Notes under the pieces: model-generated
The model's input: only the letters and a program-made list of their open reading frames with translations
What the model was told of the DNA's origin: nothing
The model's database searches: none
Position numbers and translations under genes: made by a program
In this document: positions 9,836 to 63,866 of the stretch, in pieces
Layout: the number at the start of each line of letters is the position of its first letter
Numbering within the stretch: position 1 is the first letter of the stretch
Assembly: GCA_964586515.1 (NCBI GenBank)
Contig: CAZPGJ010000001.1
Coordinates: 158,390-222,389 of the forward strand
From: an uncultured Dehalococcoidales bacterium
GTDB taxonomy: Bacteria; Chloroflexota; Dehalococcoidia; GIF9; AB-539-J10
Length of the DNA stretch: 64,000 nt
Direction: 5' to 3'

Positions 9836-11265
9836 ATAATGAAGCTATCTTTCTGCTTATCCGTGGCGGCCATATAATTGACCCCAGCCAGGGCATAGAC
9901 CAGGTTGGTGACTTGCTTATTGCTGAGGGCAAGGTTGTGCACTTGGGAGGCGAAATACCAACTGTCATTGCGAGTGACCTGCCCGCCTGCTCGCCGCACG
10001 ACTTCGGCAGGCGAGCCAAGGCTTGGCAGGCGGGAGCGAAGCAATCTCAAGCAATTGATGCCACTGGATTGATTGTCTGCCCCGGATTCGTAGACCTCCA
10101 CTGTCACCTCCGGGAGCCAGGTTTTGAGGATAAGGAAACAATCGCCACAGGGACAAAGGCAGCCGCCATAGGCGGCTTTGCCACTGTCTGCTGTATGCCG
10201 AATACCAATCCTCCCCTCGATAGCTCCTCTGTTCTAGACCTGGTGAAGAGAAATACGAGCAGGGAAAGCTTCATCACGGTTCTTCCCATAGGCTGCATTA
10301 GCAAAGGTAGGAAAGGCAAGGAATTGACCGATATGGCCAGGCTGGCAGAGGCCGGGGTGGTTGCTTTCAGCGACGATGGCGACCCAGTGAAAAGCTCACA
10401 GCTCCTGCGTCGTGCTATGGAACATAGCCGCGACCTGGGCCTGCCAATCATTGACCATTGCGAGGATAGAGCGCTGAGCGACAATGGAATCGTAAACGAA
10501 GGCCAGATATCTGCTAAGTTAGGTCTAAAAGGAATTCCTGCAGCCGCAGAAGAGGTCATTGTGGCGCGTGACTTGATTCTGGCAAAGTTGACCAGGGCCA
10601 GACTTCACATAGCCCATGTCAGCACCAGGGGCTCTGTAGAGCTTATTCGCCATGCCAAGGAAGAAGGGGGTTCAGTAACCGCTGAGGTTACACCCCACCA
10701 CCTGACTCTGACCGAGGACGCAATCACAGGCAGGTCTCACAATGACTCGCTTAATACTAACGCCAAGGTGAACCCACCTCTACGCACCAGCGAGGATATC
10801 GAAGCCTTAATCAGGGGACTCAATAACGGTGTAATCGATGCTATTGCCACCGACCACGCACCTCATACTCTGGCCGATAAAAATTGTGGGCCAGAGCTAG
10901 CCGCTTTTGGCATCAGCGGCTTTGAAACCGCTTTTGGCTGCCTCATGAGCCTGGTGCATGAAGGGAAAATAGACTTGACCATGCTGCTCTCCAAGCTCAC
11001 CTGTGAGCCAGCGAAAGTCATCAGTAGAAATGGTGAACTAGGCACCTTAAAGGCCGGCGCCCCGGCTAATATCAGCATACTCGACCCTGACCGGGAATGG
11101 ATAGTGGATAGCCGCAATTTTGCCTCTAAGGGCAAGAATACTCCTTACGATGGCTATAAGTTTAAGGGCAAGGTGATGGCAACCATAGCAAGCGGCAGGA
11201 TAGTTTACACTGATAACTCCCTTGTCATTGCGAGGAACAAAGTGACAAAGCAATCTCATGGCTAG
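9832..11265 (+). CDS. pyrC: Dihydroorotase carrying an in-frame ~85-bp palindromic repeat insertion near the N-terminus
   Basis: Amidohydrolase motifs (PGFVDLHCHLREPG, DHAPH). Residues ...VIASDLPACSPHDFGRRAKAWQAGAKQSQ... are encoded by the repeat at 9964-10048. Confidence 0.85.
   Translation: MNNEAIFLLIRGGHIIDPSQGIDQVGDLLIAEGKVVHLGGEIPTVIASDLPACSPHDFGRRAKAWQAGAKQSQAIDATGLIVCPGFVDLHCHLREPGFEDKETIATGTKAAAIGGFATVCCMPNTNPPLDSSSVLDLVKRNTSRESFITVLPIGCISKGRKGKELTDMARLAEAGVVAFSDDGDPVKSSQLLRRAMEHSRDLGLPIIDHCEDRALSDNGIVNEGQISAKLGLKGIPAAAEEVIVARDLILAKLTRARLHIAHVSTRGSVELIRHAKEEGGSVTAEVTPHHLTLTEDAITGRSHNDSLNTNAKVNPPLRTSEDIEALIRGLNNGVIDAIATDHAPHTLADKNCGPELAAFGISGFETAFGCLMSLVHEGKIDLTMLLSKLTCEPAKVISRNGELGTLKAGAPANISILDPDREWIVDSRNFASKGKNTPYDGYKFKGKVMATIASGRIVYTDNSLVIARNKVTKQSHG
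9964..10048 (+). repeat. Copy of the ~85-bp GC-rich structured repeat (GTCATTGCGAG...GCGAAGCAATCTC), in frame inside pyrC
   Basis: Near-identical to copies at 16497, 17207 and 26456 and to the inverted copy at ~34843. Internal complementary arms CCCGCCTGC/GCAGGCGGG and CTCGCC/GGCGAG. Confidence 0.85.
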
Positions 11266-23553: not shown

Positions 23554-24057
23554 TGTTTATTCAGGCAATTAAGACCCTTGCGTAGCAATCTGTACATCAA
23601 TATAATAGCATTTGTCAATATTTACGGCAAATTATTACTTGTCTTTAAGGGGTAGTTGCAGAATGATATATAAAAATAGCTCCCGGTGGTAGGACCCCAC
23701 GCCTGTACAGACGCTGCCATCTTCAGCAGATGACCAACCATTCCCCAGGAGCTTTTCTTACTACTATCAAAATTATAGTAAAATGTTATAGTATTGTCAA
23801 TATTTGATTGGCATTTGCAACGAGGTGGGGTTATGGATAAATTGAAAACCAATGTTTTGTATTATGGCTACAAGGTGATTCACGGGAACACCATGGTGTT
23901 TATCGTGAACAGTATGAAAACAAGTTTAAGGAGTATAAGTGAATAGTCATCTCATAGAAATCCTTGAGGACGAAGAACTCAAAGCTAGAATACAGAGGAA
24001 ATTGCCCTACTTATTTAACATTGCTGAGCTAGAAAGCTCCCGAGCAGGAAAAATTGG

Positions 24058-52131: not shown

Positions 52132-52575
52132 ATGAAGCTTTCTACTAAAGGCAGATATGGAGTGAGGGCACTTTTGGATTTGGCTCTTCATCAAGGTGAG
52201 GGGTTGGTTCTATTAAAGGATATCGCCCGGAGGCAAGAGGTTTCACTGCCGTATCTAGAGCATCTGATCACTCCTCTTATAGCTGCCGGCCTGGTGAAGA
52301 GCACACGGGGGGCTCGGGGTGGTGTCTTGCTACTTAAGCCGCCCTCGGAGATCAAGCTTAGTGAAGTAGTTCAACTTCTTGAGGGCTCCATTGCCCCGGT
52401 GGACTGTGTGAATGATCCTAAGGTATGCCACCGTTCTGCTTCTTGTGTTACCCGGGATATCTGGAGTGAGATGAAGAGGGCAATGAGCCAGGTTTTAGAT
52501 TCTAAGACCTTACAGGACCTGGTTGAGCGGCAAAGACAGAAGGGACAAACTGAAACAGGGATGTATTACATTTGA
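52132..52575 (+). CDS. Rrf2-family transcriptional regulator (IscR/CymR-like) with three clustered Cys (Fe-S ligands)
   Basis: wHTH N-terminus (MKLSTKGRYGVRALLDLA) and CVNDPKVCHRSASC. Confidence 0.8.
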   Translation: MKLSTKGRYGVRALLDLALHQGEGLVLLKDIARRQEVSLPYLEHLITPLIAAGLVKSTRGARGGVLLLKPPSEIKLSEVVQLLEGSIAPVDCVNDPKVCHRSASCVTRDIWSEMKRAMSQVLDSKTLQDLVERQRQKGQTETGMYYI

Positions 52576-56552: not shown

Positions 56553-57791
56553 GTGGCCTTAAAGGAGGAAGATTTGTCCTATGCTATAGCCTTGCGCTGC
56601 CGGAAGTGTGGGCGAGAGTATCCGTTGGAGCCTCTCAATCTATGTGACTTTTGCTTCAGTCCGTTAGAGGTAAACTACGACTATAAGTCTATAGCTAAAG
56701 CGGTAAGTCGGGAAAAGATTCTCGAGGGGCTGCCAAGCATGTGGCGCTACAGAGACTTGCTGCCTGTAGATGGCGATGTAGTGGATATTGGCACGGGATT
56801 CACTCCTCTTGTTAAGGCTGATAACCTGGGGCAGGAACTGGGGTTGGAGAAGCTTTATATCAAAAATGACTGCCTTAACCCAACGTACTCCTTCAAGGAT
56901 CGGGTGGTCTCGGTAGCTATCACCAAGGCACGAGAATTTGGATTTGATACCGTGGCTTGTGCCTCAACAGGCAATCTGGCTGCTAGCGTGGCGGCTCATG
57001 CTGCCAAAGCAAATATAAAGTCCTATGTTTTCGTTCCCTCTGATGTGGAACCAGGTAAGCTGACAGGAATAGCAATCTATAACCCAGTTCTGGTGACAAT
57101 TAAGGGAAACTACGACGATGTCAACCGCCTCTGTAGCCAGATAGCGCAGAGATATAACTGGGGGTTCATCAACATTAATCTCCGACCCTACTATGCTGAG
57201 GGGAGCAAGACCCTGGGTTATGAAGTAGCTGAACAACTGGGGTGGCATGCCCCTGATTGTGTAGTGGCCCCCGCTGCCTCGGGGCTCCTCTTTACCAGGA
57301 TATGGAAAGGCCTGGACGAGCTTTCTATGCTGGGTTTAATTCAACCGATCAATACTCACATGTATCTTACCCAGGCTGCGGGTTGTTCTCCCATTGTCAA
57401 TGCTTTTGAGGCAGGTATTCACCATGTGCACCCAGTGAAACCAAATACCATCGCCAAGTCTATAGCTATTGGGAACCCGGCTGATGGCTATTATGCGTTG
57501 AGGGTTGCCCGGCAGTCAGGGGGCAGTGCCTGTGCTGTCACCGATGAAGAGGTGGTTGAGGGGATGAAGCTGCTGGCCGAGACTGAAGGCATTTTTGCCG
57601 AGACAGCTGGAGGTGTGGTAATAGCGGGGTTGCGGAAGCTAGTGACCTCGGGGATAATTAAGAGGAATGAGCTTACGGTGGTTTTCATTACCGGGGCAGG
57701 ACTGAAAACCCAGGAAGTGATAGCTGAGGGGGTTCATCCCCTCGTAATCCAGCCCACCTTGGAATCCTTCGAGGAAATTTTTGGTAAGTGA
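56553..57791 (+). CDS. thrC: Threonine-synthase-like PLP enzyme with N-terminal zinc-ribbon (CxxC...CxxC)
   Basis: CRKCGREY...CDFC followed by the fold-type-II PLP motif SFKDR. Specificity (Thr synthase versus a sulfhydrylase-type relative) cannot be resolved from sequence alone. Confidence 0.6.
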   Translation: MALKEEDLSYAIALRCRKCGREYPLEPLNLCDFCFSPLEVNYDYKSIAKAVSREKILEGLPSMWRYRDLLPVDGDVVDIGTGFTPLVKADNLGQELGLEKLYIKNDCLNPTYSFKDRVVSVAITKAREFGFDTVACASTGNLAASVAAHAAKANIKSYVFVPSDVEPGKLTGIAIYNPVLVTIKGNYDDVNRLCSQIAQRYNWGFININLRPYYAEGSKTLGYEVAEQLGWHAPDCVVAPAASGLLFTRIWKGLDELSMLGLIQPINTHMYLTQAAGCSPIVNAFEAGIHHVHPVKPNTIAKSIAIGNPADGYYALRVARQSGGSACAVTDEEVVEGMKLLAETEGIFAETAGGVVIAGLRKLVTSGIIKRNELTVVFITGAGLKTQEVIAEGVHPLVIQPTLESFEEIFGK

Positions 57792-57857
57792 GCTTGAGTC
57801 TTTAATGTTCCACTCGTGTTATAATTTTAACTTTAGAAAAAATATCAGGAGGACAAG

Positions 57858-58100
57858 ATGGTCAAGCGAGGAGTAAAGTTCACCTTTCCACCGGAATTGA
57901 TTAAGGAGCCCATCATTTACAATCTCGGTCAACAGTTTAAGGTAGTGACCAATATCCGACGCGCTGATGTAAATGGAGACAAGGGCTGGGTAGTTCTTGA
58001 ATTGGAGGGGGAAGGAGAAGATATCGAGCGTGGAATTGCTTGGGTGACTGGCAAAGGGGTAAGGGTTGATCCCGTTGTCGGAGATATTGTAGAGGGTTAG
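57858..58100 (+). CDS. Stand-alone NIL-domain protein (80 aa)
   Basis: …QFKVVTNIRRADVNGDKGWVVLELEGEGEDIERGIAWV… parallels the N-terminal domain of the NIL-ferredoxin at 45225. Confidence 0.5.
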   Translation: MVKRGVKFTFPPELIKEPIIYNLGQQFKVVTNIRRADVNGDKGWVVLELEGEGEDIERGIAWVTGKGVRVDPVVGDIVEG

Positions 58101-59261
58101 ATGCGAAGGATATATCTTGACCACGCTGCCACCACGCCAACACATCCCGAGGTAGTGAAGGCCATGCTGCCTTATTTTACCGATGCCTTTGGCAATCCTT
58201 CGAGCATCTATTCTTACGGGCAAGAAGCGAAGGGGGCCGTAGAAGAGGCCAGAACTAGGGTGGCGGAACTTATTGGCGCTCGGAGCGAGGAGATTATTTT
58301 TACCAGCGGGGGAACGGAGGCGGATAACTATGCCTTAGAGGGCGTTGCCTATGCTAATGAGCGTAAAGGGAATCACATCATCACCACCTCCATTGAGCAC
58401 CATGCGGTGATGGAGGTGTGCAAGTTTCTGGAGAGAAGGGGATTCAGGATAACCCGCCTGCCGGTGGATAAATATGGCCTGGTTGACCCTGATGATGTCA
58501 AGAGAGCTATTACCGATAAAACCATCCTTATCTCAGTCATGCATGCCAACAACCAGGTAGGCACGATAGAGCCTGTGGAAGAAATAGGTAAAATTGCCAG
58601 AGAGGCAGGGGTCTATTTTCACACCGATGCCGTGCAAACGGTGGGGCATATCCCGGTGAATGTGGATAAACTTAAGGTAGACTTGCTCTCCATTGCAGCG
58701 CATAAGTTCTACGGACCTAAAGGAGTGGGGGCGCTGTATGTCAGGAAAGGCACCAGGTTAGTTTCCCTTATGCATGGGGGAGAGCAGGAAAAGAGGCGCA
58801 GGGCTGGTACCGAAAATGTTCCTGCTATCGTGGGGCTTGGCAAGGCGGTGGAGCTTGCCGGGCAGGAGATGGGCAAAGAAGCAGAACGGCTGGCTTATCT
58901 TCGGGATAAGCTAATTAAAGGTCTCTTGGAGAAGATTGACCACATCCGCTTAAATGGTCATCCCACGAGAAGGCTGCCCAACAATGTCAATGTAAGCGTT
59001 GATTTTGTGGAAGGGGAATCCATGCTTTTAAATCTTGATTTAGAGGGCATCTGTGCTTCTACCGGCTCAGCCTGTAGCTCGGCAATCCTTGAACCGTCCC
59101 ATGTTCTTCTGGCGCTGGGGCTTCCCCCCGAGCAAGCTCATGGCTCGCTCAGGTTTACCTTGGGGCGAGAGAATACCGAGGAAGACGTAGAGCGAGTTTT
59201 GGATGTCCTGCCCAGAGTTGCCGCCAAGCTCAGAGCGATGTCGCCACTGTTGAGAGGATAG
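58101..59261 (+). CDS. iscS: Cysteine desulfurase (NifS/IscS family)
   Basis: PLP-lysine HKFYGPKG, active-site cysteine loop SSGSACSS. Confidence 0.85.
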   Translation: MRRIYLDHAATTPTHPEVVKAMLPYFTDAFGNPSSIYSYGQEAKGAVEEARTRVAELIGARSEEIIFTSGGTEADNYALEGVAYANERKGNHIITTSIEHHAVMEVCKFLERRGFRITRLPVDKYGLVDPDDVKRAITDKTILISVMHANNQVGTIEPVEEIGKIAREAGVYFHTDAVQTVGHIPVNVDKLKVDLLSIAAHKFYGPKGVGALYVRKGTRLVSLMHGGEQEKRRRAGTENVPAIVGLGKAVELAGQEMGKEAERLAYLRDKLIKGLLEKIDHIRLNGHPTRRLPNNVNVSVDFVEGESMLLNLDLEGICASTGSACSSAILEPSHVLLALGLPPEQAHGSLRFTLGRENTEEDVERVLDVLPRVAAKLRAMSPLLRG

Positions 59262-59322
59262 GTTAATAAGAAAAGAGAAATTTTTAGTATGAGACTTAGA
59301 CGTCCTTGAAAGGAGGCCTTCG

Positions 59323-59952
59323 ATGACATTAAAGAGGCGCGTCAGACTGGTGATTCTGCCAATTGTGGGGGTCTTAGTGATTTTGGGCATCGCGATGGTA
59401 CTGTTGAACCACTTCAACGGCCCTCCCCAACAGCAAGGACTTGATCCGACCCCGCAGATCTGGAGCGAAATTATCCCTGAAGAAGGGACAGTGACCGGTT
59501 ACGGCACCTCGCTGTCTCTTGAGAACACGCAACAGTTCATTGATTGGTACAATTCCATAGAGCTATCCACCAAGGAGCAAGCAATCCGGGATACGGCTCT
59601 GGGTTCACTGGTGGCTCCATGCTGTGATGAGTACCCGATGAGCACCTGCTGCTGTGAATGCAACCTCGCCCGCAGTGTATGGGGATTATCGGCTTATCTA
59701 ATCGCTGAGAAGGATTATGGAGTGAACCAAGTCCAGGAGGCCGCCTCTCAATGGCTCCATTTCATTCGCCCCGATTACTATGTGGGAAGGGCGCTTGAGC
59801 AGGAAGGAATTGACCCAGGACTGTGGGGATTCACTACAGAAAGCTCGTGCGCTGCAGGTCACTGTGACCGTCCTTTCTATACCGAGACGTCATCTGGTCA
59901 CCTTGGTGGTTGTGGGGGGATGGAGGAGCTCATCCAAGTTGAACTAAACTAG
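59323..59952 (+). CDS. Hypothetical membrane-anchored cysteine-rich protein (209 aa) between iscS and iscU
   Basis: N-terminal TM helix (LVILPIVGVLVILGIAMVLL); Cys cluster APCCDEYPMSTCCCECNLARS plus CAAGHCD and GGCGG. Confidence 0.5.
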   Translation: MTLKRRVRLVILPIVGVLVILGIAMVLLNHFNGPPQQQGLDPTPQIWSEIIPEEGTVTGYGTSLSLENTQQFIDWYNSIELSTKEQAIRDTALGSLVAPCCDEYPMSTCCCECNLARSVWGLSAYLIAEKDYGVNQVQEAASQWLHFIRPDYYVGRALEQEGIDPGLWGFTTESSCAAGHCDRPFYTETSSGHLGGCGGMEELIQVELN

Positions 59953-60045: not shown

Positions 60046-60447
60046 ATGCCTGATGTTTGGTCACAGTACAGTGAGAAGGTAATGGAGCACTTCAAGAATC
60101 CCCGGAATGTCGGGGAGATGGAGAACCCCGATGGTGTGGGGCATGTCGGGAATCCGGTCTGCGGCGATATTATGGAGCTTTACATTAAGGTCAACGACGG
60201 CATCATCGTTGACGCTAAATTCAAGACCTTCGGCTGTGGAGCGGCTATTGCCACCAGCTCCATGGTCACTGAAATGGTGAATGGAAAGAGCATAAAAGAG
60301 GCTCTGAAAATCTCCAACAAGGCAGTTGCTGAAGCTTTGGACGGGCTGCCGCCGGTCAAAATGCACTGCTCGGTCCTGGCTGAGGAGGCACTTAAAGCGG
60401 CCATTGAGGATTACTTGGAACACCAGAAACTGAAGAAGCAGACCTAG
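60046..60447 (+). CDS. iscU: Fe-S cluster assembly scaffold IscU/NifU
   Basis: The three scaffold cysteines (GNPVCGD, GCGAAIA, HCS) and an LPPVK motif. Confidence 0.85.
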   Translation: MPDVWSQYSEKVMEHFKNPRNVGEMENPDGVGHVGNPVCGDIMELYIKVNDGIIVDAKFKTFGCGAAIATSSMVTEMVNGKSIKEALKISNKAVAEALDGLPPVKMHCSVLAEEALKAAIEDYLEHQKLKKQT

Positions 60448-60563
60448 TACCAGAATTTCACGATAATCCCCAAGTATGTATCTCCCTTCGTTGTCCTGCC
60501 AATTTATGCATTTTGCTGGACATGTCAGCACCAACCTATTTAAGACTTTTGACTGCGGTTTAT

Positions 60564-60600
60564 ATATGAATTATAATTCATATAAATGGAGATTCATATG
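60564..60600 (+). promoter_or_regulatory. Putative ArsR operator: 20-bp perfect palindrome ATATGAATTA|TAATTCATAT (60564-60583) plus a third half-site ATTCATATG overlapping the arsR start
   Basis: Perfect inverted repeat read from the sequence, immediately upstream of and overlapping the arsR start codons (ATG 60586 and 60598). Confidence 0.5.
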
Positions 60601-60912
60601 CCAATAGAGGAAGGCCAGGCAAGGTTTCTGAGGTGCATCGGAGAGCCGACGAGACTCCAGATACTCAAGGTGCTGGCGGAGGGCGAGAGGTGCGTTGGCG
60701 AACTCGCCTATGTTTTGAGTAAGGAGCAATCTCTGATTTCACACCACCTGAGAGCCCTTAAGGAATGCAACATTGTGAAAGAGAGGCAGGAAGCTCAGAA
60801 AGTTTACTACAAGCTTACGGATGCTAGATTAGCCAGGTTAATTATTGATAGCGAAGCTCTAATGAAGGAGCTATCGCTATGCAAATGTCAGGAGGTGAAT
60901 TATGAAAGATAA
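60586..60912 (+). CDS. arsR: ArsR/SmtB-family metalloregulator
   Basis: wHTH with the metal-binding motif ERCVGELA and family helix LISHHLRALKE. Confidence 0.8.
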   Translation: MEIHMPIEEGQARFLRCIGEPTRLQILKVLAEGERCVGELAYVLSKEQSLISHHLRALKECNIVKERQEAQKVYYKLTDARLARLIIDSEALMKELSLCKCQEVNYER

Positions 60913-61660
60913 GGAAATCAAGGAAGTGGTGAAGGGGAGATATGCTCAGATAGCTAGGCAAGACCAAGAGAGCTGCTGCCCAAGTTGTTCTGGCGGGGCC
61001 AGCTCCTTGTTGCAAGCTAAGGGTACCGAGTACTTGAGAGAGGATTTGGAACATGTTCCGGAAGAGGCGATTATGGGGTTGGGATGTGGTAACCCCGCCG
61101 CCATAGCAGACCTCAAAGCGGGTGAGATAGTCCTGGATTTAGGGTCGGGAGCTGGTGTAGATGTGTTCCTGGCAGCTAATAAAGTTGGTCCGACTGGCAA
61201 GGTTATCGGGGTTGATATGACGGAGGAGATGGTAGATAAGGCAGAAGAAATCGCCAGGAATTATGGCTACCATAACGTGGAATTCCACCTAGGGGAAATT
61301 GAGAGCCTCCCAGTCGAGGATGAGTCTGTGGATGCGATTATCAGCAACTGCGTCATCAATCTCTCGCCGGATAAATCTAAGGTCTTCCAGGAAGCTTACC
61401 GAGCCTTGAAGCCCAGGGGCAGGCTCACAGTCTCTGATATTGTCTCCGAAAGAGCGCTCCCCAATGAGATAAAGACTGACTCGAACGCCTGGGCATGTTG
61501 TATCGGCGGGGCATTGGAGCAGCAGGAATACTTGGAAAAGATAAAGAAAGCTGGCTTTGAGGATGTAGAGATAGTATCAAGCCGGGAATTTTATATAGAG
61601 AACAAAGCAAACCAGACGCAAGAGAAGCTTCTGAGCATCACGGTAAAGACATATAAGTGA
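60902..61660 (+). CDS. arsM: Arsenite S-adenosylmethionine methyltransferase (ArsM/AS3MT-like)
   Basis: Conserved Cys (CCPSC, LGCG), SAM motif VLDLGSGAG, and a C-terminal WACCIGG. Confidence 0.7.
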   Translation: MKDKEIKEVVKGRYAQIARQDQESCCPSCSGGASSLLQAKGTEYLREDLEHVPEEAIMGLGCGNPAAIADLKAGEIVLDLGSGAGVDVFLAANKVGPTGKVIGVDMTEEMVDKAEEIARNYGYHNVEFHLGEIESLPVEDESVDAIISNCVINLSPDKSKVFQEAYRALKPRGRLTVSDIVSERALPNEIKTDSNAWACCIGGALEQQEYLEKIKKAGFEDVEIVSSREFYIENKANQTQEKLLSITVKTYK

Positions 61661-61714
61661 GAAACCAGGCGGCAATATAGCCAGCCACGGCTTCAATCTG
61701 TCGGAGGTGGATAG

Positions 61715-62713
61715 TTGGTAATCCAGTATCTCATAGTATTCAAGGATTATCTCATTGAGATATTGCCCTTCCTGGCAATAGGGTTCCTACTGAGTGGCTT
61801 AATTCACGAATTTGTCCCTTCAAACTGGGTGGAGAGACGCCTCGGTGGACGAGGTTTGAAGCCAATCCTTTACTCCACCCTTATCGGGACAATCCTTCCC
61901 ATCTGCTGTTTCGGCTCCCTCCCGGTGGCGGTGAGCCTGCACCAGAAAGGGGCAAGGTTAGGACCAGTTCTAGCTTTCCTGGTCGCAACGCCAGCTACCT
62001 CCATAACCGCCCTTCTCGTCACCTATGGTCTCCTGGGATTAAAGTTCACCATATTCATCTTCTTTGCCGTGATAGCCATGGGTTTAGTCATGGGGCTGGT
62101 AGGAAATCTCATCAAGGTCAGACCTAAGGTTTTTACTCTTCAAGAGCAACAGGCTCTCGACCCGGTTTGTGGGATGAGTGTCGAGGTAGGGAAAGCGGCT
62201 AAGGCAGAATGTGGCGGAGAGACGTATTACTTTTGCTGTTCCCACTGCCAGCAGGCCTTTGAGGATAATCCAAAGGAGTATATAGGAGCTTATTCTCGGA
62301 ATGTTGCTCACAGAGTAAAGCATGTGTTCAGATATGCCTTTGTGGATATGGTCAAGGATATCGGGCCGGAGTTGCTTCTGGGTCTGGCTCTGGCGGCTTT
62401 GGTAGCAGCGGTGGTTCCGGTGGGGAAGTTCGTTGGTGCTTATCTCAGTGGGGGACTGGGGTATCTTTTCAGCCTTGGCTTTGGCTTAATCATGTATATC
62501 TGCTCCACAGCCAGCGTTCCCCTGGTCCACGCCTTCGTGTCGCAGGGAATGAATATCGGCGCCGGAATGGTGCTCCTGTTGGTGGGCCCCATTACCAGTT
62601 GGGGCACTATCCTGGTCCTGAGAAAGGAATTCAGTGGCAGGACCCTGGCTATTTATCTGGCGGTCGTCAGCGTAATGTCTCTGGCTCTGGGCTACTGCTT
62701 CTCGCTGATATAG
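61715..62713 (+). CDS. Permease of the DUF318/ArsP-like family with an inserted YHS/TRASH-type metal-binding domain
   Basis: Multi-TM protein with LPICCFGS and a cytosolic loop CGMSVEVGKAAKAECGGETYYFCCSHCQQAFEDNP (the YHS pattern). Downstream of arsR-arsM. Confidence 0.55.
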   Translation: MVIQYLIVFKDYLIEILPFLAIGFLLSGLIHEFVPSNWVERRLGGRGLKPILYSTLIGTILPICCFGSLPVAVSLHQKGARLGPVLAFLVATPATSITALLVTYGLLGLKFTIFIFFAVIAMGLVMGLVGNLIKVRPKVFTLQEQQALDPVCGMSVEVGKAAKAECGGETYYFCCSHCQQAFEDNPKEYIGAYSRNVAHRVKHVFRYAFVDMVKDIGPELLLGLALAALVAAVVPVGKFVGAYLSGGLGYLFSLGFGLIMYICSTASVPLVHAFVSQGMNIGAGMVLLLVGPITSWGTILVLRKEFSGRTLAIYLAVVSVMSLALGYCFSLI

Positions 62714-62829: not shown

Positions 62830-63591
62830 TTGAAAGATAAGGGCAGGCACATGTTAACGAAGGACGATTTAACCAGATACGAACGCCAGATTTTGTATAC
62901 AAGCTTTGGTGAGAACGGTCAAAAGAGACTTAAACAGTCCCACGTAGTGGTAGCCGGACTCGGTGGACTGGGATGCTCTGCTTCTCTATATCTGACGTGT
63001 GCCGGCGTAGGGCATATCACCTTAATAGACTGTGACCGTGTAGAACTCTCTAATTTAAACCGGCAGATTCTTCATTATGAGGAGGATATTGGAGAGGGAA
63101 AGCCCTTGTCCGCAGCACAGAAGCTGGCTAAATTAAATTCTTCAATAAAGGTTACTCCTGTTTTCAAGAAGATTACTGAACGTAATGCCAGAGAAATTAT
63201 CAAAGGAGCAAATCTGGTAATAGACGGGATGGATAATTTCAAGACCAGATTTATTCTTAACAAGGCGTGTGTTGCCGGAGGAATACCCTTCATCCACGGG
63301 GGTGTCCACGGCCTCTTTGGCGAGGTTACTACTATACTCCCGAGGAGGACGCCCTGCCTTGCCTGCATTTTTCCGGAAGTTCCCCAGAGAAGAATTACGT
63401 TTCCTGTTTTTGGTGTGACGCCGGCCTTGATTGCTATCTTACAAGTGACAGAAGCAATTAAGCTGCTGGCCGGCTTCGGGTCTTTGCTAACAGGGAAGAT
63501 GTTATATTTCAATGGTGACACAATGGATTTCACATTCCGTAACCTCGTAAGAAACCCAAATTGCAAGGTCTGCGGGACGAAGGAGTTTTAA
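62830..63591 (+). CDS. ThiF/MoeB/HesA-family E1-like adenylyltransferase
   Basis: Glycine-rich GLGGLGC nucleotide-binding motif, a CxxC pair (CLAC...CKVC) and the family LSNLNRQ motif. Confidence 0.8.
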   Translation: MKDKGRHMLTKDDLTRYERQILYTSFGENGQKRLKQSHVVVAGLGGLGCSASLYLTCAGVGHITLIDCDRVELSNLNRQILHYEEDIGEGKPLSAAQKLAKLNSSIKVTPVFKKITERNAREIIKGANLVIDGMDNFKTRFILNKACVAGGIPFIHGGVHGLFGEVTTILPRRTPCLACIFPEVPQRRITFPVFGVTPALIAILQVTEAIKLLAGFGSLLTGKMLYFNGDTMDFTFRNLVRNPNCKVCGTKEF

Positions 63592-63866
63592 AAATTAGCA
63601 TCACGGTAAGGCTTCATCCGATTTTACAACACCTTGCTGGAGGGCAAGAAGTGGTTGCAGTGACCGGTCATACCACTGGTGAATGCCTTGAGGATTTGGA
63701 AAGCCGTTTCCCCGGTATTAAACAACTGATTCGTGATAAACGAGGGCAGCTACGTCGCTATTGTGAAATTCTTGTTAACTCCAAGTCCACCTATCCTAAT
63801 GAACTAACTACCCCGGTGAAAGATGGAGACCACATTGACATTGAGGTTTTTGTCACTGGGGGATAA
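63561..63866 (+). CDS. ThiS/MoaD-like ubiquitin-fold sulfur-carrier protein ending in Gly-Gly
   Basis: About 90-100 aa with C-terminal ...VFVTGG. Start uncertain (the ATG at 63561 overlaps the thiF-like 3' end). Confidence 0.5.
   Translation: MQGLRDEGVLKISITVRLHPILQHLAGGQEVVAVTGHTTGECLEDLESRFPGIKQLIRDKRGQLRRYCEILVNSKSTYPNELTTPVKDGDHIDIEVFVTGG

Follow-up and report, generated by a model that had tools for sequence, protein, structure and literature searches.

Most of what is known about copper defence in the cell envelope comes from aerobes and enterics and concerns proteins such as CueO, CusF, CopG and CueP; far less is known about how strict anaerobes (e.g., Dehalococcoidales, Anaerolineae, Bipolaricaulota) handle Cu(I) outside the cytoplasm. 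Here we analyse a gene, henceforth gene X, in a 64,000-nt stretch of DNA from an uncultured Dehalococcoidales bacterium (the window; coordinates without a locus label are positions in this stretch). A preliminary description had placed this open reading frame (ORF) between iscS and iscU, and had offered three options for its product: a novel iron-sulfur (Fe-S) or persulfide-handling factor, a metal chaperone, or a membrane-tethered cluster carrier. When homologs of X are compared across genomes, the genes around them speak for a part in copper handling and thiol redox chemistry and not for one in Fe-S cluster assembly. In the reading that we favour, and to which we assign a probability of roughly 40%, X acts at the cell surface as a Cu(I)-binding thiol/selenol protein, with CcdA and TlpA recharging it.

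The closest described systems each share some features with X. CopG (DUF411; PDB 6WIS) is a periplasmic protein with a CxCC motif and a Cu4 cluster, is linked to copA and cusCBA and takes part in anaerobic copper resistance; from the same source, TlpA reduces copper-binding cysteines (PMC7558416). X resembles CopG in being extracytoplasmic, in its run of cysteines (CCCxC in X) and in its linkage to copA and cusCBA, but CopG has a thioredoxin-like fold and uses methionine and histidine along with cysteine, whereas X is predicted to be helical and has nine cysteines; no Pfam or PDB match places X in the CopG/DUF411 family. CueP, a periplasmic, cysteine-based Cu(I) binder, receives its copper from CopA and works with the DsbD-like and thioredoxin-like Scs reductases (PMC10907172). 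The Salmonella set of CueP with ScsB, ScsC and ScsD matches the X/CcdA/TlpA/CopA gene sets described below, although CueP has no sequence or fold similarity to X and is a soluble alpha/beta protein, whereas X is membrane-tethered and has predicted selenocysteine (Sec) forms. In Cox17, the vicinal cysteines of CCxC bind Cu(I) and the oxidation state gates binding (PMC7909247); the likeness to X (C110-C111-x-C113) is in the motif only, Cox17 being a eukaryotic mitochondrial twin-CX9C protein unrelated in sequence and context.

Other counterparts differ more in their chemistry or architecture. CusF, the Cu(I)/Ag(I) chaperone of cusCFBA, is like X a small extracytoplasmic protein encoded in, or right after, a CusCBA operon. 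It is a beta-barrel that uses methionine, histidine and tryptophan and contains no cysteine, and X has no Pfam match to it. CcmH, the thiol reductase of cytochrome c maturation, has a membrane-anchored, periplasmic helical domain with a CxxC motif, which the predicted architecture of X may resemble. It receives its electrons from DsbD or CcdA through a TlpA-like redoxin. Unlike CcmH, X has seven further invariant cysteines, no CcmH Pfam match and no cytochrome c maturation genes among its neighbours. SoxY and X are both extracytoplasmic and both have a glycine-flanked cysteine near the C-terminus (GGCGG in SoxY, PMC6067878; GCGGM in X), but SoxY, a beta-sandwich protein and the partner of SoxZ, ends with its motif, whereas X is predicted to be helical, has eight more cysteines and has no SoxZ or other sox neighbours. 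Csp1, finally, is a four-helix bundle lined with some 13 or more cysteines and carries a twin-arginine translocation (Tat) signal if exported, whereas the nine cysteines of X lie mostly in loops; with a Tat-like motif in a single one of 120 homologs and no PDB match, X does not appear to be a Csp1 protein.

X belongs to an undescribed family of nine-cysteine proteins

A word-indexed search returned 168 homologs of X with E-values down to 1e-116, all of them unnamed or called 'hypothetical', and a pattern scan of species-representative genomes, one for each species, gave 166 loci. Against three relatives, the ratio of nonsynonymous to synonymous substitution rates (dN/dS) was 0.22-0.30. The homologs and these ratios together identify X as a real gene and rule out a spurious ORF. 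The 209-aa product with one N-terminal transmembrane helix and the cysteine motifs quoted in the preliminary description are all present as written (APCCDEYPMSTCCCECNLARS at residues 98-118, CAAGHCD at 176-182 and GGCGG at 195-199), and its picture of a conserved, uncharacterised, cysteine-rich and membrane-anchored protein is borne out. X had no match in Pfam or NCBIfam at E ≤ 0.1, 43 diverse members of the family had none in Pfam at E ≤ 10, and sequence searches of the PDB were negative both with X as a single sequence and with a profile; thus no known unrelated family, such as that of a lipoprotein adhesin, claims it. Horizontal insertion as an artefact was dropped because the GC content of X equals that of the adjoining genes.

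The 43 aligned sequences span Chloroflexota, Bipolaricaulota, Acidobacteriota, Spirochaetia, Elusimicrobia, Nitrospirota and the archaeal Hydrothermarchaeota. Invariant among them are nine cysteines (C100, C101, C109, C110, C111, C113, C176, C181 and C197) together with W120, G121, W144 and M200, and the mature part contains exactly nine cysteines in 97 of 110 proteins. Altogether the family extends across at least 10 phyla, all uncultured, and its source genomes are all metagenome-assembled. On the sequence evidence, X therefore represents an undescribed, nine-cysteine, membrane-tethered family without a Pfam, NCBIfam or PDB match. A metallothionein was considered and dropped, as cysteine makes up only about 5% of the protein and the domain is well folded.

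About ten homologs carry a C-terminal rhodanese domain in which the active-site cysteine is retained (e.g., YCKSGGRS); they are P0079, P0081, P0084, P0086, P0101, P0106, P0110, P0112, P0115 and P0117, with an example at locus L005:7001-8032. One rhodanese-fused homolog is named 'phage shock protein E' by its source. The profile built from our first alignment had kept the rhodanese columns, so that its 28,711 matches were mostly rhodaneses, and it was used only to spot truncated members.

AlphaFold2 modelled full-length X with a mean predicted local distance difference test score (pLDDT) of 87.3, and the soluble domain with a pLDDT of 92.8 and a predicted template modelling score (pTM) of 0.89. 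The soluble-domain model is mostly helical, with CC and CCCxC in loops. A Foldseek comparison with the PDB gave no convincing fold match (best E 2.5). The top fold match in two independent models was CcmH (PDB 2hl7), a weak one with 68 residues aligned at 10% identity.

Which side of the membrane the cysteines face had been left open between extracytoplasmic and cytoplasmic. X begins with MTLKRRVRL, followed by a hydrophobic helix of about 20 residues with four positive charges ahead of it and acidic residues behind; by the positive-inside rule, this distribution suggests an N-in, C-out topology with the cysteine domain outside the cytoplasm. A lipobox is present in 58 of 120 homologs, and 55 of them begin with a hydrophobic anchor or signal. 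With lipoboxes in about half of the homologs pointing the same way as the charges, the cysteine domain of X is predicted to be extracytoplasmic. The window copy itself has no lipobox ([LVI][ASTVI][GAS]C after the hydrophobic core of the signal peptide): relatives that are 82-83% identical read ...VLSACGSPPEQQG (lipobox VLSACGS) where X reads ...VLLNHFNGPPQQQG (VLLNHFNG), so that X has exchanged lipid anchoring for an uncleaved signal anchor. A canonical twin-arginine motif is not conserved, occurring in 1 of the 120, so X is presumably exported unfolded and would acquire any cofactor outside; Tat export of a cofactor-loaded X was dropped on the same count.

Candidate selenocysteine forms

Three genomic homologs consist of two in-frame ORFs parted by a TGA that falls exactly at the middle cysteine of CCC, and three cluster representatives stop at that same residue, one of them confirmed on DNA. 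A degenerate DNA pattern (C-TGA-C-x-C-N-L...W-G) run on metagenomes gave 35 matches, 15 of which are full members of the X family when read through the TGA; 18 were chance matches without family similarity and were discarded. The total comes to 19 genes with TGA at C110, from two subfamilies, with conserved sequence on both sides of the codon, a normal C-terminus and family hidden Markov model (HMM) scores of 167-321 bits. Several of them also end on TGA as the true stop. Recoding of C110 yields U-x-x-C (U110-x-x-C113), and UxxC is the commonest motif among redox selenoproteins according to a recent inventory (PMC13188914).

A hairpin follows the UGA at 19-22 nt, with stems of 6-9 bp and G-containing apical loops (GGUCN or GUG/AGUGU). 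This spacing fits the published model of the bacterial selenocysteine insertion sequence (SECIS), in which the hairpin has a G in its apical loop and lies 16-37 nt beyond the UGA (PMC13188914). The hairpin was more stable in the Sec forms than the corresponding region in 81 Cys forms (-10.4 vs -7.5 kcal/mol; Mann-Whitney p = 3e-6, uncorrected for relatedness). The two were separated by the region 10-45 nt after the codon and by a 9-bp stem model, and not by the folding energy of the whole 48 nt after the codon. The stems hardly vary and the encoded peptide is conserved; no covariation is demonstrable.

The same inventory, dated 2026, counts 119 prokaryotic selenoprotein families, those in the first part of its Table 1 being tied to Pfam, NCBIfam, cd or PTHR identifiers, and its text contains no CUC motif (PMC13188914). 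As X matches no Pfam or NCBIfam model, its family appears to be absent from the inventory, so far as that first part of the table goes, and looks like a candidate new selenoprotein family. Public gene calls split the TGA-form loci (L014:10214, L022:5063, L027:10226, L091:851 and 15 loci in L094-L120) into fragments that end at ...C (P0224, P0231, P0238) or begin after the TGA (P0193, P0248). The Sec forms are thus mis-annotated as fragments in protein collections.

One of the Sec forms is at locus L027. Its operon encodes, in order, CcdA, the Sec form of X, a TlpA-like redoxin, an ArsM-like protein and a Cu(I) ATPase (CopA). The TlpA-like lipoprotein gene (L027:10417-11030, +) has an in-frame TGA in its active site at 10726-10728 (LLNFWATW*PYC, read as WUPYC), so that two predicted selenoproteins would stand side by side; X at this locus also has TGA for its true stop.

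Gene neighbourhoods across the family

For 85 non-redundant loci, all ORFs lying up to 6 kb from X were grouped into clusters, and Pfam searches confirmed what the main ones are; enrichment was judged by the general expectation of how rare such genes are. A Cu-type exporter was found in 28 of the 85 loci. P1B ATPases with Cu(I) signatures (CPC / YNx4P / MxxSS) lie within 20 nt of X on the same strand in L009, where the order is CsoR-CopA-X, and in L013, L017, L023 and L037; in L003, L027, L072 and L085 they lie within 3 kb. About ten loci from Acidobacteriota, Elusimicrobia and delta-proteobacteria have the order CusC-CusB-CusA-X, their CusB carrying heavy-metal-binding domains. In metagenome-assembled genomes of Acidobacteria, X paralogs stand in tandem directly after CusA and before a CopA-type ATPase (two at L083:7520-10513, three at L084:9884-11966), which is local amplification as often seen in metal-resistance islands. 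YHS proteins occur close to X in some loci and ArsM-like genes in seven. Same-strand adjacency to CsoR-CopA and CusCBA across phyla makes a metal chaperone the best supported of the three options first proposed. Since the exporters adjoin X in unrelated phyla, Cu(I) or Ag(I) would be the expected ligand, and the ArsM-like, YHS and SO_0444-like neighbours (the last in the window, see below) widen the likely range to soft metals and metalloids.

A second theme is extracytoplasmic reduction, with CcdA/DsbD and TlpA-like redoxins in 15 of the 85 loci: in 12 from Anaerolineae and actinomycetes, CcdA/DsbD_TM and TlpA-like genes adjoin X, and in three from Bryobacterales a redoxin gene lies directly upstream. 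These adjacent reductase genes suggest that the cysteines of X work in the reduced state. They would also suit a CcmH-like terminal thiol-disulfide (selenylsulfide) oxidoreductase that is fed by CcdA via a TlpA-like redoxin, and is not a metal store or chaperone; it would reduce one specific substrate outside the cytoplasm, perhaps protein thiols oxidised by copper, Cu(II) itself or a small disulfide. Consistent with such an enzyme are the position of U/C110-x-x-C113 at a helix start, the presence in the Sec forms of the commonest motif of redox selenoproteins, CcmH as the top fold match, the adjoining CcdA and TlpA-like genes and the predicted Sec in the TlpA-like neighbour at L027. A simple CxxC reductase, however, needs no nine invariant cysteines including two vicinal runs, and reductase genes were not found at the many CopA- and CusCBA-adjacent loci. 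The likeness in fold is weak, Pfam gives no CcmH match, and heme-handling genes (ccm or res) were not among the recurrent neighbour clusters. We regard this enzyme as a doubtful but serious possibility.

Genes of sulfur metabolism (Rrf2, cysK, cysE, nifS, thiF, ThiI-like PP-loop) form the third theme, seen in 22 of the 85 loci, in Dehalococcoidales, Bipolaricaulota and Anaerolineae; the window locus is one of them. A PP-loop, NifS or CysE gene lies immediately upstream of X in several phyla. At L001:8726-9538, which holds a relative 78% identical to X, Rrf2, cysK and cysE precede X and lgt (prolipoprotein diacylglyceryl transferase) directly follows; nifS and nifU were not found near X there.

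This theme bears on whether X might carry sulfane sulfur (persulfide or polysulfide) outside the cytoplasm, in the manner of SoxY or Sud, on its GCGGM and vicinal cysteines, perhaps to supply sulfur for assimilation or to trap metals as insoluble sulfides. The invariant GCGGM, 4-13 residues from the C-terminus, does recall the sulfur-binding GGCGG arm of SoxY (PMC6067878), the rhodanese of some ten fused homologs keeps its active-site cysteine, and CcdA/TlpA could free bound sulfur by reduction. Yet X has no SoxY Pfam match and is predicted to be helical where SoxY is a beta-sandwich, and no sox, sqr or psr genes were found in the neighbour clusters of the 85 loci. The sulfur genes that do occur encode cytoplasmic biosynthetic enzymes without evident need of a surface carrier, and the adjacency to CopA and CusCBA stays unexplained unless metal sulfide formation is added. 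A sulfur carrier is in our view unlikely, though still a serious rival.

No informative neighbours were found in 39 of the 85 loci, as would be expected if X were a structural protein of the surface that disulfides stabilise (e.g., an adhesin or a part of the envelope) and its surroundings were coincidental. Against this stands the recurrence of copper-exporter and reductase neighbours in unrelated phyla. Sec is not used in structural disulfides, yet 19 genes have TGA at one invariant site, so that this residue cannot be purely structural; nine is moreover an odd number of cysteines. Many of the hosts are anaerobes, and anaerobes often have no disulfide-forming machinery. Such a structural protein is therefore very improbable.

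The locus in the window

The features of X and of its surroundings in the window are listed in Table 1. The claim that X lies between iscS and iscU was right in kind, as a desulfurase and a scaffold protein do flank it, and wrong in type: the pair is NifS/NifU-type by TIGR03402 and TIGR03419, and in NCBIfam the desulfurase falls below the IscS cut-off and above the NifS cut-off. No promoter- or terminator-like sites were found in the nifS-X and X-nifU spacers, and X is probably co-transcribed with nifS and nifU in this genome.

Table 1 Features of gene X and its surroundings in the window
Feature	Position	Strand	Remarks
Gene X	59323-59952	+	ATG start, 209 aa, TAG stop; membrane-tethered nine-cysteine protein, all-Cys form
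Shine-Dalgarno sequence aaggagg	59310-59316	+	Read directly; 6 nt 5' of the X ATG
N-terminal signal-anchor helix of X, ~residues 9-29	59347-59409	+	After KRRVR; AlphaFold2 helix 11-30
Cys9 domain of X, ~residues 66-203	59518-59931	+	Mostly helical; from alignments and soluble-domain model
Vicinal pair C100-C101 in APCCD motif	59620-59625	+	Invariant in alignments
C109-C110-C111-E-C113 (CCCxC)	59647-59661	+	Invariant; directly ahead of long helix 114-130
C110 codon	59650-59652	+	TGC in window copy; in-frame TGA at same position in 19 homologous genes
C176 and C181 (CAAGHC)	59848-59865	+	Both invariant
GGCGGM with C197 and M200	59905-59922	+	C197 and M200 invariant; 4-13 residues from C-terminus across family
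NifS-type cysteine desulfurase	58101-59261	+	61 nt upstream of X; TIGR03402, 607.6 bits (cut-off 530.75)
NifU/IscU-type scaffold	60046-60447	+	93 nt downstream of X; TIGR03419 (NifU_clost), 214.1 bits (cut-off 187.9)
Rrf2-family regulator	52132-52575	+	phmmer match; first gene of same-strand cluster
Soft-metal(loid) module: arsR/smtB regulator, arsenite-methyltransferase-like gene, YHS-bearing permease	60586-62713	+	Just downstream of nifU

The position of X between nifS and nifU, with spacers free of such signals, and the presence of NifS within 6 kb in nine loci are what speak for an accessory of NifS and NifU, i.e., a membrane-tethered carrier of clusters or persulfide as the preliminary description had it. 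When the desulfurase-scaffold interval is followed into relatives, however, the arrangement does not recur. The order nifS-X-nifU is confined to the window, with a loose counterpart in the closest genome (L011), where two genes part X from nifU; just 3 of the 85 loci have NifU within 6 kb of X, and most family members have no Fe-S assembly neighbour. The cysteine domain is predicted to lie outside the cytoplasm with no conserved Tat motif, and searches of Pfam and NCBIfam gave no match to known ISC/NIF accessory families (IscA, HscB, Fdx, IscX, NifU domains). A direct role in Fe-S assembly is accordingly unlikely, and the accessory-carrier reading can hardly be right. The two genes between X and nifU at L011:10638-11662 encode a small cysteine-rich zinc-ribbon protein and a protein with a 4Fe-4S ferredoxin domain; neither occurs in the window.

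From Rrf2 onwards, the same-strand cluster reads cysK, thi4, cysE, cystathionine lyase/synthase, thrC-like, NIL, nifS, X and nifU, followed 3' of nifU by arsR, an arsenite-methyltransferase-like gene, the YHS permease, thiF and thiS. A near-consensus promoter-like site (60549-60577; TTGACT, 17 nt, TATAAT; 11 of 12 positions) lies 9 nt before arsR, and the end of arsR shares 11 nt with the beginning of the arsenite-methyltransferase-like gene (60549-60912, +). The permease (61715-62713, +) is of the ArsP_1 type, with a YHS metal-binding domain inserted mid-protein (residues 149-192). Among NCBIfam models it comes closest to the SO_0444 family Cu/Zn efflux transporter (234.6 bits, short of the cut-off of 300), with SaoE second.

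Elsewhere in the cluster, the threonine-synthase-like gene has an N-terminal Cys4 zinc-ribbon and is followed by the small NIL-domain gene (56553-58100, +), and a MoeB/ThiF-type E1 gene overlaps that of a ThiS/MoaD-like carrier (62830-63866, +). Together these four resemble a set for sulfur-carrier-protein-dependent synthesis of cysteine or homocysteine. The sole Rfam match in the window is a DUF3800-VII RNA (RF02967) at 23670-23756 (-), with 48.5 bits against a gathering score of 36.2; no tRNA genes were found in the window.

A model for X and its significance

Metal binding, the identity of the metal, electron flow from CcdA/TlpA to X and the co-regulation of X are what we infer for the favoured model. 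According to it, X would be tethered to the membrane at the outer face of the cytoplasmic membrane, presenting a compact, mostly helical domain with CC, CCCxC, C-x4-C and the near-C-terminal GCGGM. Its cysteines would act as free thiolates, joined in some lineages by one selenolate at C110 (U/C-x-x-C at a helix start), and would be held reduced by electrons that cross the membrane via CcdA/DsbD and a TlpA-like redoxin. At the cell surface, the reduced domain could then capture Cu(I), and perhaps further soft metals and metalloids (such as Ag, Hg or As(III)), that come from outside or that a CopA-type ATPase or CusCBA has just exported; once bound, the metal might be buffered or passed on. Anaerobes would thereby have a suitable copper defence that needs no oxygen. 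In the window, where X sits in an Rrf2-headed cluster of cysteine, sulfur-carrier and NifS-NifU genes, its expression may be linked to cysteine supply and to Fe-S damage, one of the chief effects of copper stress.

Several observations weigh against this model. None of the three neighbour themes was found in 39 of the 85 loci, and the window contains no CopA, CsoR, CcdA or TlpA. Among Chloroflexota and Bipolaricaulota, X is tied to cytoplasmic sulfur genes (the 22 loci) about as strongly as to copper, and metal binding accounts for this only indirectly. The rhodanese domains fused to the C-terminus of some homologs are catalytically intact, which suits sulfur transfer better than it suits metal binding. 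As for the selenolate, the sequences on which the case for the hairpin rests are related, and coding for the conserved peptide NLARSVWG is enough to favour some pairing.

A bolder version, which is doubtful and which we put forward tentatively, would have this new fold and Cys/Sec family build a multinuclear Cu(I)-thiolate/selenolate centre at the surface, possibly a copper-sulfide one, that is recharged from CcdA through TlpA, serves anaerobes as an oxygen-independent replacement for the multicopper-oxidase step by which copper in the envelope is detoxified, and is coupled genetically to the supply of cysteine and Fe-S clusters.

For the interpretation of operons, X illustrates that a gene inserted in an isc/nif operon is not necessarily Fe-S machinery. 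The family, which is confined to uncultured lineages, has a confidently predicted fold without a match and has CopA, CusCBA, CcdA and TlpA as neighbours, is a concrete candidate for a role in handling Cu(I) in the envelope of anaerobes. The pairing of TGA and Cys at one invariant site marks a functional residue; it makes the family of X a candidate addition to the prokaryotic selenoproteome and mends many genes that metagenome annotations had split in two.

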